From a virus (taxonomy: Duplodnaviria > Heunggongvirae > Uroviricota > Caudoviricetes), in IMG/VR virus record IMGVR_UViG_2703718788_000013: a stretch of 44,513 nucleotides of DNA; one strand, 5' to 3'. Position numbers and translations under genes: made by a program. Within the stretch, counting starts at the first letter, position 1; each line of letters starts with the position of its first letter. The notes under the pieces are model-generated. The model saw only the letters and a list, made by a program, of their open reading frames with translations. It had not been told where the DNA came from and did not search any database. Positions 2,321-12,142 of the stretch are shown here, in pieces.

Positions 2321-4792
2321 TTAAAAATCAGCCTGACTCGGGATCAGTTTTTGCCAGATAGCTGAAACGTATTTTGCTTGGTAACGAGCGTCATCAAGTG
2401 CATTATGGCGCTCACCTTCGAATGGGATAGCAGTTCTGGCATCGAAGTCTATGGCTTTCCCCAGCTCAACGATTGTGCGTATATCGCGATCGTTGTAGTA
2501 ACGCCACGGGCAGGGGATCCCCTGCCGTTCGTATGAACGGCGCAAAATCGTGTTGTCGAAGTTTGCTCCATTTCCCCAGACCTGAACAAAAAATTCACCG
2601 GAGTTTTCGTCGATAAATTCCCGCAATTGTAACAGTGCATCATCTAACGGGATTTCATCGGTCATAATGGCAGATTGCGCTTCGCGTGATTGCTTAAGCC
2701 ACCATTTAATGGTGTCCCGATCAATGACTCCGCCAGCAGTTTCCAGATCGACAGTCTTACTAAATTCCGGTCCCATATCTCCGGTTTGCGGATCGAAAAA
2801 TATTGCACCTATTGAGATAATCGGGGCATCAGGATTTTTTCCCATGGTTTCAAGGTCGATCATCAGATGAATCCCCGCTCTGCTGGTGGATGTGAGATTA
2901 TGATGACCGTTCATCTTAATTAAGGGATCTGACGCCTCGCCAGTTTCACTATCGCTGGCATGATGCTGATTGCCGCCAGTGTTCTCCTTGTGCTGATGCG
3001 CAGTGCCTTCCATTTCCTCCGGAACATTTTCCTGAACTTCAGGCTGATTCTCTTCATCGAATATTTCCTGGTATGTTGCGTCGCCCATCACCGCACCACA
3101 ATCAGGGCAGCTACCGCCGCCGGTCTGACCGCAGGCGGTGCAGGCTTTTTCCGGCTCCTGTTGCGCTACTGGTTCAACCTGTTTCGTTTCTGGCTCGTTT
3201 TGTTGCGCATTTGGGCTGTTTTGTTCCGTTTTTTGGTCGTTCTGTTCCGATTCTTGCTGGTTCTGGTTTACAGAGTCGCGGGTTTCAATCCCCTTCACCC
3301 ATTTCGGATCATTCGGGTCGCTAATCCCTGCAACAAATTCTCCGCGAGAGGCAGCAAGCAACTTATCGGCGTCAGGCTGGCTGATATTGGCTGCCTGCAT
3401 AATTTTGTTTACTTCTTCAGCGGTAACTTTTACCGGCTCTGGTTGTGCGGTCGTGTCAGATGCACCAGTATTTTGTTGTGAACCTGAGTATGTACTGTTT
3501 TTGCGGGCAAAATATTCTTCTTTCGTGATTTCAGTAGCCCCTGCAGTCAGCGCCTTATTCAGACCAGAAAGTTTGTTTGCGCGACCATATTTTTCGCCAT
3601 CCTTATCTGTGAAGAGGAAGTAGAACGGCCCTTCACGCTCTACAGATGGTTCGACTTCCACTTTGCATTCGGTTTTTTCGTTGTCCGGAATTGCCGTTTC
3701 CACTGCATCAGTTTCTGGTACTGGCGACGAGAGAGTATCAGTTGCGCTCTGATTTGTTCCTTCATCTTCAAACACGCCCTTTGTAGTCAGATATTCAGTA
3801 ATGTATTTGTTCAGTGCCACAGGGGTTTTGTGAATGTCGATCGGACGTTCACGGACAAGGCCAAAAATAGTCTGGCGGTCGTAGCGAAGGGCATCAGGCT
3901 GTTTGCGCATTGATGCCGAGATACGCTTCCAGTCTTCGCGGTCGTTGTCGATAACTTCATTTTTTGCCCAGCGATGGATGCTGCCGTCAATGTTTCCGGC
4001 ATCAATGTCACCAGGCCACAGAGCGTAGGCCAGTTCATCATCCAGTGTTTTCCATGTCTGCTTGTATTCGCGACGAATGGTGGCAGTGGCTGGGGGGATT
4101 TTCGCTACTGAGTTTTCAGTGTTCTGCCGGTTGACTCTGGCGCGGGCAAGATCAACAACAGACGTGTATTTCCCGGTTTCTTTGCGTTCGGCTTCGCGAC
4201 GTTTTTTCCAGGTGCGTAATTCTGTCTGGATCTCAGGCCATTTTGCTCCCGGCTTACATTTATGTTTAACCCACCCGATGGCGAGCAGCTTGAGCTCTGA
4301 ATACATGACGTTAACTTCAGGCATTTTCATCAATGCCTCAACGATATGCCCGTCGAATGTTGCCATGTCCTCCTGCAGTAATTCCTGAGCACTAATCACC
4401 ATATCAACGGTGATGTTTTCACATGTACCGAACTTAACCAGGACCGCGTTCTGTACTTCAAGGGACAGCTTGTTAAAATTGACGTTCATCGGATCGGATT
4501 CTGGTTCGACCGGAATAAAGGAAGCGGATTCCTCATCCCAGCGGTTTTCCTGCATATATTCGGTATCCCAGGAGTCGATAGCAGGGCGGGGCATGCCGGG
4601 TTTATCCTCGCAGACAAGAAATTTATAAGCGCAGTCCTGAGCAGCCGGATATTGCTCCAGGAATTGCCAGGTAAATTTGGCACGGGCGCGGCGTTCGTCA
4701 CCGGCTTCAATGGCAGTGGCTACAGCAATTGCACCTTCTTCCTTTATTGCCTGTTCGTCCGGAATGGCGGCGCAAATAAAGACTTTACTCAT
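2321..4792 (-). CDS. Large exonuclease-family protein with C-terminal DnaQ-like DEDDh 3'-5' exonuclease domain (RecE position)
   Basis: 823-aa ORF, GAGG ribosome-binding site 10 nt upstream; C-terminal motifs IDLETMG (Exo I), WGNGANFD (Exo II), HNALDDA (Exo III); central acidic/Q-rich linker with CxxC...CxxC (CTACGQTGGGSCPDCG). Confidence 0.8.
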   Translation of the reverse strand: MSKVFICAAIPDEQAIKEEGAIAVATAIEAGDERRARAKFTWQFLEQYPAAQDCAYKFLVCEDKPGMPRPAIDSWDTEYMQENRWDEESASFIPVEPESDPMNVNFNKLSLEVQNAVLVKFGTCENITVDMVISAQELLQEDMATFDGHIVEALMKMPEVNVMYSELKLLAIGWVKHKCKPGAKWPEIQTELRTWKKRREAERKETGKYTSVVDLARARVNRQNTENSVAKIPPATATIRREYKQTWKTLDDELAYALWPGDIDAGNIDGSIHRWAKNEVIDNDREDWKRISASMRKQPDALRYDRQTIFGLVRERPIDIHKTPVALNKYITEYLTTKGVFEDEGTNQSATDTLSSPVPETDAVETAIPDNEKTECKVEVEPSVEREGPFYFLFTDKDGEKYGRANKLSGLNKALTAGATEITKEEYFARKNSTYSGSQQNTGASDTTAQPEPVKVTAEEVNKIMQAANISQPDADKLLAASRGEFVAGISDPNDPKWVKGIETRDSVNQNQQESEQNDQKTEQNSPNAQQNEPETKQVEPVAQQEPEKACTACGQTGGGSCPDCGAVMGDATYQEIFDEENQPEVQENVPEEMEGTAHQHKENTGGNQHHASDSETGEASDPLIKMNGHHNLTSTSRAGIHLMIDLETMGKNPDAPIISIGAIFFDPQTGDMGPEFSKTVDLETAGGVIDRDTIKWWLKQSREAQSAIMTDEIPLDDALLQLREFIDENSGEFFVQVWGNGANFDNTILRRSYERQGIPCPWRYYNDRDIRTIVELGKAIDFDARTAIPFEGERHNALDDARYQAKYVSAIWQKLIPSQADF

Positions 4793-9996: not shown

Positions 9997-10238
9997 CGAG
10001 ATTAAAATGCATTAGTTAAGATGTGAATTGACATTTTGTGGCACAGGATAGAGCTAGCGTGGTTGTCCGCTTTGTGCCAAAAGCGGACGTTAAGCTTACC
10101 AACTCATATTTTAAGGTCATAGGTGCGTATAAACGAAGTACCACGCTTAGGAGTAGTGAATTTACAGACTTACAAAATCATTTATTTCAGGCCAATTTAT
10201 GTAATGGCATAATCAGGTTGGTGAAAGAGAGGGCTGAA

Positions 10239-10823
10239 ATGGATAAAAAATCTAAAAATCAGATAGTAGATAGCGATATTGCACGTTTATTGCTTAAACA
10301 TAGGAAGGCTCGCAATTTGACTGTAACAGAGCTTGCTCAACGATCGGGCGTCAGTCAGGCCATGATTAGTAAGATTGAACGAGGCATCTCCAGCCCTAGT
10401 GCAACTATCCTTAGCCGCCTGGCCAACGCCATGAATGTAACGCTATCTAAACTCTTTGCAGAGCTTGAGCAACATCAGAATTCTCTGGTTCGTTTTGCTC
10501 ATCAGCAACAGCACTGGACGGATGAGCAATCAGGCATCACTCGTTGGTCTTTGTCTCCTGCGGGGGCATGCCCGGAACTGATCAAAGTTGAAATTCCTGC
10601 AATGGGTGAGTTGACGATACCCGCCTCCGCAAATGAGCATCTTTCCGGGCAAACGCTTTGGGTGATGAGTGGTAGCCTTGATTTTCGAGTCAAAAATCAG
10701 ACCCATCATTTACGTGCCGGTGACTGTCTTGCCCTTACCTTTGCAAGCGAGTACCAAATGAGCAATCCAGATAGTGAGCAGAGCTGTTCTTACATCGTGG
10801 CTTTTAGCCAAAAAAATCAATGA
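10239..10823 (+). CDS. Transcriptional regulator, HTH_XRE N-terminus plus cupin-like C-terminal domain
   Basis: ORF-track 10038..10823; ATG at 10239 (MDKKSKNQ); HTH segment LTVTELAQRSGVSQAMISKIERG. Confidence 0.7.
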   Translation: MDKKSKNQIVDSDIARLLLKHRKARNLTVTELAQRSGVSQAMISKIERGISSPSATILSRLANAMNVTLSKLFAELEQHQNSLVRFAHQQQHWTDEQSGITRWSLSPAGACPELIKVEIPAMGELTIPASANEHLSGQTLWVMSGSLDFRVKNQTHHLRAGDCLALTFASEYQMSNPDSEQSCSYIVAFSQKNQ

Positions 10824-10843
10824 TATCTTCTCTGCCACATTGG

Positions 10844-11287
10844 TTACATGTTATTGGCCATTCTCAGATGCAACAAGGGGTATGGCCTTCCCTGATTATC
10901 CAGATCGGAACGCCCTGATACCTGAAACCCCATATGCTGATAAAACCCTACAGCCTGCTGGTTTTGTTCATTTACATCAACGCTTAGCTCTGGATGCAGC
11001 GCCAGTGCATGAGAGATCAAACGTTTTCCGACGCCAAGTCCGCGAGCAGAGCCTGCTACAAAAAGTGCCTCCAGATGGCCCTTATGCAAAAACATAAATC
11101 CTAGCGGTTGGTCATCCTGATTTGTTGCAACCCATACAGGAGTTTCTGAGAAAAAGCCGACAACTTCTTTTTCGATTTCTTGTCGGTCATGACCTGTAAG
11201 AAAGTCGTGGGTAGCATCCACTGAACTCTTCCAGATTTGTATGATCTCATCTGCTTCAGATGGTCGTGACATTCTGATATCTAACAT
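10844..11287 (-). CDS. GNAT-family N-acetyltransferase
   Basis: 147-aa ORF with acetyl-CoA binding-like segment (ARGLGVGKRLI); convergent with the HTH-cupin gene. Confidence 0.7.
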   Translation of the reverse strand: MLDIRMSRPSEADEIIQIWKSSVDATHDFLTGHDRQEIEKEVVGFFSETPVWVATNQDDQPLGFMFLHKGHLEALFVAGSARGLGVGKRLISHALALHPELSVDVNEQNQQAVGFYQHMGFQVSGRSDLDNQGRPYPLLHLRMANNM

Positions 11288-11685
11288 TTTTCAACCTTAG
11301 AGTGAACTTTATTTTGTGTAATAACGAACGAAAAGAACTTACTTTAATTTACTATAGTAAAATGATATTCACAATAGTATTTGTGATTTCTATGCCTTAT
11401 CAACGTGATGAGAAGTGCTAAGTTAGTCTGATCCTCTTTATCATCATCAACGACAATGTTCCTGAGCTTTATCACATTGAATGTCCGCTTCTCGCTCAAA
11501 GCGGACTAGAAGGTTAGCTTGCGTCGGACTTGGCGTATTTAAAGAAGTGCTGGTGGTGACTGGTTGTCGTGTTCCATTTCTACAGAACAAAATCACAGAA
11601 ACTATACCCAATAGTTGTATTGAATCACTGACGAGACAGCCTCATATTTATCAGGACTGGTGTACGTCCAATACAGGAGGTTGTG

Positions 11686-11775
11686 GTGCTGGTTCTCAAA
11701 TGTGCGCTGGCTATTGCTGCTGTAATGGCAATTTATTGCCTTGCTGTTGTTCTTATGGATCGCCTTTCTGACTGA
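11686..11775 (+). CDS. Candidate small hydrophobic membrane peptide (about 29 aa)
   Basis: AGGAGG at 11675-11680 then GTG; product VLVLKCALAIAAVMAIYCLAVVLMDRLSD; overlaps in another frame the Cys-rich 96-aa ORF-track call 11481..11771. Confidence 0.3.
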   Translation: MLVLKCALAIAAVMAIYCLAVVLMDRLSD

Positions 11776-11986
11776 TTTCATATTGGCGAGGTAACGGTAG
11801 TTAAGTAGAATGGCTGTGGGTGCTTGAGGCTATCTGCCTCGGGCATGAACACCAACGGCAGATAGAGAAAAGCCCCAGTTAACATTACGCGTCCTGCAAG
11901 ACGCTTAACATTAATCTGAGGCCAATTTCATGCTAGACACATGTAGGTTAGCCTCTTACGTGCCGAAAGGCAAGGAGAAGCAGGCT

Positions 11987-12142
11987 ATGAAGCAGCAAAA
12001 GGCGATGTTAATCGCCCTGATCGTCATCTGTTTAACCGTCATAGTGACGGCACTGGTAACGAGGAAAGACCTCTGCGAGGTACGAATCCGAACCGACCAG
12101 ACGGAGGTCGCTGTCTTCACAGCTTACGAACCTGAGGAGTAA
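11987..12142 (+). CDS. hok: Hok/Gef-family type I toxin
   Basis: 51-aa product MKQQKAMLIALIVICLTVIVTALVTRKDLCEVRIRTDQTEVAVFTAYEPEE, near-identical to remembered HokD/RelF; AAGGAGAAG ribosome-binding site; 8-bp hairpin at 12151-12170. Confidence 0.85.
   Translation: MKQQKAMLIALIVICLTVIVTALVTRKDLCEVRIRTDQTEVAVFTAYEPEE

Follow-up and report, generated by a model that had tools for sequence, protein, structure and literature searches.

A reading frame of 29 codons, situated immediately 5' of the hokD/sok locus in an E. coli lambdoid prophage, is very probably a genuine and mostly unannotated protein-coding gene, judging from the comparison of its relatives. The frame runs on the plus strand from a GTG at 11686 to a TGA at 11773–11775 of the 44,513-nucleotide stretch of DNA that was analysed (hereafter the window), and on comparative grounds the combination of a hydrophobic open reading frame (ORF) with a ribosome-binding site (RBS) is far beyond what chance would give. 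The explanation that best fits the data as a whole, and which we consider probable, is that of a real, self-contained gene for a single-pass inner-membrane peptide acting in a tolerated accessory or modulating role. The lambdoid prophage cargo thereby gains a conserved membrane peptide that is probably expressed, beside a classic type I toxin locus; its gene belongs to no curated family and is almost always missed by PGAP in the genomes sampled. The region also illustrates clearly how a real small ORF can be told apart from a conspicuous ORF that overlaps it.

The window is an E. coli lambdoid prophage, identical over the small-ORF region to NZ_CP039404, a record in which hokD is annotated. 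The small ORF belongs to the early-right (nin) region, past the replication genes and ahead of Q. From left to right, the replication genes (O-like and DUF977) are followed by a variable cargo slot (10038–11287), by an unannotated block (11480–11780) that contains the small ORF, and by the hok promoter, the hok leader with sok, and hokD, after which come DUF968, RusA and Q. In the window the slot holds an HTH(XRE)-cupin gene (10038–10823, plus strand), whose product matches PADLOC models of the HTH, RmrA and CapH type only through its HTH region, and a GNAT acetyltransferase gene convergent with it (10844–11287, minus strand). Elsewhere the slot holds an FRG-domain gene, a gene for a 340-aa hypothetical protein, or ORF6N, DUF551 or Ead genes, or it is empty, and the block is kept. 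The slot is a cargo hotspot, possibly with a role in defence.

The block with its small gene was found in ~36% of complete E. coli genomes (1957/5426), and the block is also found in the isolated phages Evi, Tritos and mEp460. PGAP places no feature under it in 39 of 40 sampled genomes, and in the fortieth it is overlain by the end of a DUF977 CDS. A right-hand portion of 195 nt recurs at ~78% identity on the Shigella plasmid pINV and on some E. coli F-type plasmids, the small gene being carried by the virulence plasmid in all four Shigella species. Occurrences in MAGs labelled Collinsella, Candidatus Scatousia and Haemophilus (L008, L009, L011) are on short contigs with an E. coli prophage segment, and are probably binning contamination.

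The product of the small ORF, MLVLKCALAIAAVMAIYCLAVVLMDRLSD, has one predicted transmembrane (TM) helix (approximately residues 6–24) followed by a short charged tail of the form M-D/E-R/H-L-S-D, and its mean Kyte-Doolittle hydropathy is 1.8 overall and 2.7 in the core (residues 6–24). The initial annotation of this DNA had described an AGGAGG at 11675–11680 ahead of a GTG-initiated hydrophobic frame of about 29 residues ending in DRLSD. All of these elements are indeed present, and the frame and the size stand; what needs refinement is the start codon, as the ORF listing for this frame begins at the first of two consecutive GTG triplets (11683–11775, 30 aa). A start at the first GTG was rejected because most relatives have GTC, ATC, GTT or other triplets at this position, whereas at the second (11686) every relative has GTG, except for the Shigella pINV copies, which have ATG. 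With the start at the second GTG the product is 29 aa long.

Relatives were collected by an exact-pattern scan, which returned 133 loci; these yielded 86 different segments of 590 nt and 27 different ORF sequences. The retrieval pattern was fixed and located in the 3' half of the small ORF, so that variation in this half is under-sampled. An intact ORF is present at 130 of the 131 related loci, and none of the 86 distinct segments has an indel in it. Its variable sites are distributed 13/4/19 over the first, second and third codon positions (chi-square p = 0.009), and a hand count in the 45 nt that are free of the search-pattern constraint gave a split of 9/2/13. For this frame pN/pS is 0.31 overall and 0.15–0.43 in pairwise comparisons, with pairwise synonymous divergence reaching pS values of 0.44–0.60. 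A divergent copy (L136) carries an in-frame 3-nt insertion corresponding to one added codon, and GTG and ATG interchange as start codons among the copies. The small ORF is kept at 84–100% identity together with at least five unrelated types of upstream DNA, and likewise at 84–100% where another gene stands in for hok, as in L013, L022 and L047, in which hok is replaced by a convergent 120-aa ORF that may be TehB-like. In summary, selection in this frame is purifying, its start, stop and RBS are conserved and no indel breaks it, as is characteristic of protein-coding sequence. The sole disrupted copy (L080) has its TGA stop changed to TGC, which extends the ORF.

A match to BL21 (L002) had raised the idea that the block is a remnant of the 3' end of DUF977. 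In this strain a deletion fuses DUF977 into the block; the DUF977 CDS (2704–3063) is shortened to 119 aa, and its final 63 nt cross the small-ORF region in the third frame. The deletion took away the promoter of the small ORF and spared the RBS and the ORF itself. We rejected the idea, as the BL21 fusion is a deletion product in the third frame with the small ORF intact.

The Shine-Dalgarno sequence AGGAGG (11675–11680), read directly from the plus strand, ends 5 nt before the GTG. Nearly all of 36 distinct upstream sequences keep it, in the form AGGAGG, GGGAGG, AGGAGA or GGGGG, and one has AGAAGA. Further upstream we predict a sigma-70 promoter (11620–11648, plus strand) consisting of a -35 element TTGAAT (11620–11625), a 17-nt spacer and a -10 element CATATT (11643–11648). 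The arrangement TTGnnn-17-CATATT is present in 30 of these 36 sequences; its spacer is always 17 nt long and comes in 13 versions, and the CATATT ends 36–37 nt ahead of the start codon. When the 86 segments were scanned without bias for promoter-like sites, only this promoter (73/86) and the hok promoter (76/86) held their position. With only 8 of 12 consensus positions matched, the small-ORF promoter was not listed by a simple promoter scan. Transcription would be expected to start near 11655, leaving a 5' UTR of ~30 nt. In BL21, L134 and L136, which lack this promoter, the ORF stands in the sense orientation of the early-right operon.

The hok promoter (TTGGCG-17-TAGAAT, 11783–11811, plus strand), found by promoter scan, starts 8 nt past the stop codon of the small ORF. 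It is followed by the hokD/sok type I toxin-antitoxin locus (11818–12142, plus strand), made up of the hok leader with sok (11818–11992, plus strand; Rfam RF01794, 115 bits, E=1e-26) and the hokD CDS (11987–12142, plus strand). The small ORF is linked to hok in ~86% of its distinct copies, and also in two divergent lineages. No terminator was detected between the small-ORF stop codon and the hok promoter, and read-through of the small-ORF transcript into hok would thus be expected; a transcript reading into the hok promoter and leader may need to be considered in the regulation of prophage hok/sok.

The peptide has no significant match in Pfam, NCBIfam or PHROG (E up to 10) or in PADLOC (E up to 1), and profiles of Hok/Gef (Pfam PF01848) and of the other named enterobacterial toxin families do not match it. 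Homologous proteins were searched for with the 47-aa stop-to-stop translation as query. The 29-aa sequence appears in public protein collections in sporadic entries, as a hypothetical or membrane protein, one database form (P0029) being present on 650 contigs and the pINV form on 542 contigs. When 1.84 billion representative proteins were searched with a profile, only 17 matched, all of them members of the small-peptide family, and all of those with a named source come from Escherichia or Shigella. This family, which is uncurated and defined here, has the core (A/V)(I/V)YCL...L(M/W)(D/E)(R/H)L, also present in the window peptide. Two divergent members (P0045 and P0048) are encoded directly upstream of hok in lambdoid prophages, and the P0048 type is ECs_5710 (XECs145) of prophage Sp6 of E. 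coli O157:H7 Sakai. A position 5' of the hok promoter in the nin region is common to the window, L134, L136 and Sakai Sp6, the exceptions being the hok-less copies and pINV.

In a pairwise BLASTP comparison the window peptide and ECs_5710 are 54% identical (15/28 residues, E=5e-10). They share the core ...YCL.V.LMDRL.., a single predicted TM helix and a lambdoid prophage setting with the hok promoter directly downstream. In contrast to the window peptide, ECs_5710 has 34 aa, with an acidic N-terminal extension MSDDISLAMEG in place of MLVLKC, and its start codon is ATG; its upstream DNA is different and lacks the TTGAAT-17-CATATT promoter, and a perfect 22-bp palindrome, CGATATGGGAATTCCCATATCG (L137 3576–3597), with no U-tract after it, lies between its stop codon and the hok promoter.

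XECs145 is listed as a novel gene, with a predicted inner-membrane product having one TM helix, by Huecker et al. 2017 (PMC5597208). In LB its RNA RPKM was 79.1 and its ribosome RPKM 346.1, giving a ribosome coverage value of 4.35 with a coverage of 0.99; the corresponding values in BHI were 121.3, 150.1, 1.14 and 0.84, and under BHI stress 73.3, 1.1, 0.01 and 0.37 (PMC5597208 S2 Table). A member of the family is thus transcribed and ribosome-occupied in an uninduced lysogen, and this support applies to a paralogous subfamily, not to the window gene itself. A literature search with the peptide strings, ECs_5710 and XECs145 found no main-text mention, the only record being the supplements of PMC5597208. 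Prior traces of the gene are therefore partial: hypothetical-protein database entries and one paralogue with RIBOseq support.

We infer the role of the peptide from its size, hydrophobicity and context alone. With its own conserved sigma-70-type promoter and strong RBS, immediately 5' of hokD/sok, the gene would form a self-contained unit, and having its own promoter in the nin region the peptide could be made from the repressed prophage, and also via read-through of the phage early operon. The peptide, with its hydrophobic helix and charged tail, would insert in the inner membrane, where it may act as a tolerated accessory or modulator; its action could be directed at a membrane protein of the host, at a phage entering the cell or at Hok from the adjoining locus. 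This modulator mechanism is put forward as a tentative proposal that may well turn out otherwise, and the tight linkage to hok would suit a toxin just as well.

There are precedents for such a peptide among small regulatory inner-membrane and prophage proteins (KdpF, AcrZ, MgtS and PmrR, and DicB of Qin), which have a single TM segment in about 30 aa or are prophage-encoded and lysogen-expressed (PMC6832061). Like the proteins of the KdpF, AcrZ, MgtS and PmrR type, the window peptide may act by binding a larger membrane protein. None of these proteins, DicB included, is related to it in sequence, and DicB is soluble and larger than the window peptide. The gene also resembles phage morons, autonomous promoter-gene units between operon genes, in having its own predicted promoter, in lying between the replication genes and Q beside a highly variable cargo slot, and in having a lysogen-expressed homologue. 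Unlike a moron, it has no detected terminator of its own, and its transcripts should run into the hok promoter and leader.

A different account of the same peptide is that it is a new type I toxin, i.e., a membrane-damaging peptide whose translation is checked by an unrecognised antisense or structural RNA, and which forms a tandem small-toxin pair with Hok. We regard this as somewhat unlikely. The initial annotation had seen in the peptide a profile like that of small membrane type I toxins, a likeness that comes down to size and hydrophobicity: at 29 aa it is shorter than 60 aa, hydrophobic, and has one predicted TM helix and a charged tail. TisB, ZorO and Fst-type toxins are likewise small, with one TM helix and a charged tail, and the enterobacterial type I toxins as a group (Hok/Gef, TisB, ZorO, DinQ, Ldr, Ibs, ShoB) share with the window peptide a size of 19–50 aa, a single hydrophobic helix with a charged end and a location on prophages or other mobile elements, the small ORF adjoining a true Hok/Sok locus and lying directly beside hok in three divergent lineages. 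The window peptide differs from all of them in sequence, the profile libraries searched, toxin families included, gave it no match, and no antisense RNA was identified for it.

The control elements of a toxin locus were looked for in the window, an antitoxin being taken as an antisense RNA that overlaps in cis, or lies nearby, with at least 18 nt of complementarity. Elsewhere in the 44.5-kb window there is no complementary segment of at least 12 nt, only 11-mers at chance level, and Rfam detected nothing except the sok of the neighbouring hok. On the antisense strand of the small-ORF region we found no terminator and no positionally conserved promoter; the best minus-strand site, which the window has in a defective form, is found in 24 of 86 relatives. 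This site, TTAACT-18-TAAAAT, lies right after the stop codon in the relatives concerned, which have TTTTAT instead of TTTCAT, whereas the -10 of the window (11775–11780, minus strand) is TGAAAT, without the key A. As a sequence it is a reasonable candidate promoter, and a cis-antisense RNA could exist in some alleles. An antitoxin RNA encoded beyond the window, or one driven by a promoter of unusual type, would have escaped these searches.

Structure in the mRNA was likewise sought. The predicted folds of both strands are unremarkable, the small-ORF mRNA having a z-score of -0.19, and the predicted 5' UTR is short and unstructured, unlike those of enterobacterial type I toxins. RNAalifold pairs CAGGAGG, which includes the RBS, with CCUUUCUG at the 3' end of the ORF over a possible 7 bp; the changes at this pairing are one-sided only, and 2 of 12 sequences are broken at one pair. 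Together with the mostly GTG start, this pairing could limit translation as in toxin mRNAs. Against the toxin reading stand the pINV copies, with an ATG start and a consensus RBS, and the efficient translation of XECs145 during normal growth, its ribosome coverage value being 4.35 in growing lysogens; good translation of a homologue in an uninduced lysogen is more in keeping with a peptide that the cell tolerates than with a toxin kept silent. The label of type I toxin is therefore unproven, there being no match to a known family and no convincing antisense RNA or structured mRNA, and we think that a tolerated membrane peptide (a modulator, an exclusion factor or a partner of Hok) is more likely than a canonical antisense-controlled type I toxin.

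We consider it unlikely that the peptide works together with the Hok system as its functional partner, or that it is a new membrane toxin or defence effector in its own right. Were this the case, a 27-aa ORF ending in ...ICRWG, the 29–34-aa ORF described here and Hok would make up a TM-peptide module of E. coli lambdoid nin regions. The 27-aa ORF belongs to a second family of small TM ORFs (M.WPEAF...VY.ICRWG, with its own RBS) found in L137 (O157:H7 Sakai) at 3344–3427 and also in L020, L025, L090, L116 and L134–L136, ~35–900 nt upstream of the 29–34-aa ORF. Some prophages thus carry a run of small membrane-peptide genes formed by these two ORFs and hok; the 27-aa ORF is absent from the window. 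The same reading would also have consequences for virulence-plasmid biology, through an intact copy on pINV 290 bp upstream of icsP.

On pINV (L005, pWR501, NC_002698) this copy is an ATG-start small ORF at 2600–2689, preceded by its promoter (TTGAGT at 2535–2540, CATATT at 2558–2563). Downstream of it are a fossil hok promoter (TTGGCG at 2697–2702, TAGAAT at 2721–2726) and ~60 nt of the hok leader, the hok CDS itself having been lost. The ATG of icsP is at 2980, which puts the small ORF inside the much-studied icsP regulatory region.

It could also be argued that the ORF is incidental, and that the region serves the hok locus as a non-coding regulatory leader or upstream element, or is itself a small RNA. 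The block abuts the hok promoter and is left without annotation by PGAP, and the flanks of the ORF are 76–79% identical between the window and pINV, i.e., less diverged than the synonymous sites of the small ORF. We nevertheless hold this to be highly improbable in view of the codon-periodic substitutions, the conservative replacements and the in-frame indel, the survival of the small ORF without hok and with unrelated upstream DNA, the ribosome occupancy of the homologue ECs_5710/XECs145, and a small-ORF region in which neither an Rfam family nor a stable or covarying structure was found.

There is next to no chance that the real gene is instead a 96-aa Cys-rich ORF (11481–11771, plus strand) or an antisense 59-aa ORF (11602–11781, minus strand), as both are open in the window but only 8 of 67 distinct homologues have the former intact and only 22 of 86 the latter, and neither has a meaningful family match. 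The initial annotation had pointed to the extremely Cys-rich C-terminus of the 96-aa ORF, which is present, and had held that only one of the two overlapping frames was likely to be real, putting forward the short hydrophobic one with its strong RBS as the candidate gene; this judgement was borne out, with the hydrophobic frame as the coding one and the Cys-rich frame broken in most relatives (59/67). In the relatives the ATG of the Cys-rich ORF sits on a recombination junction, and stops and frameshifts interrupt the frame. The comparison of conservation and substitution rates proposed at the time separates the two clearly, since over the overlap pN/pS is 1.20 in the Cys-rich frame, against 0.31 in the 29-codon frame, for which a homologue also has ribosome-profiling support. 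The Cys-rich ORF is an out-of-frame artefact, and its composition results from Ala, Cys, Leu and Val codons being read out of frame. The annotation of phage HannyBb (L007, 2454–2743, minus strand) has two hypothetical CDSs on the minus strand over the small ORF and the hok promoter; these calls are probably spurious, because the antisense frame is not conserved.

The inverted repeat GGCAAT TT ATTGCC (11727–11740), to which the initial annotation had also drawn attention, is present inside the small ORF with its 6-bp arms, and is incidental, with no separate significance. The palindrome is perfect in no more than 6 of the 28 ORF variants, most having ATTGTC, since a Cys codon varies synonymously between TGC and TGT, and as a hairpin it is weak (5 bp with a 4-nt loop). 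A function as terminator or operator was rejected, the palindrome not being conserved and the hairpin being weak.

The left part of the conserved block (11481–11619, plus strand) is non-coding. It is 74–98% identical in most prophage copies, with length differences of 1, 15 and 24 nt (total lengths of 290, 276 and 315 nt in relatives versus 291), and is absent from the pINV copies and from the upstream DNA types B–E. Its fold has a z-score of +0.56. A hairpin, GTCCGCTT-N8-AAGCGGAC (11483–11506), lies exactly at the left junction with the cargo slot, with no T-run after it on either strand. In the WR3-3 relative both arms of this hairpin are changed, and the pairing is kept only as G.U on the plus-strand RNA.
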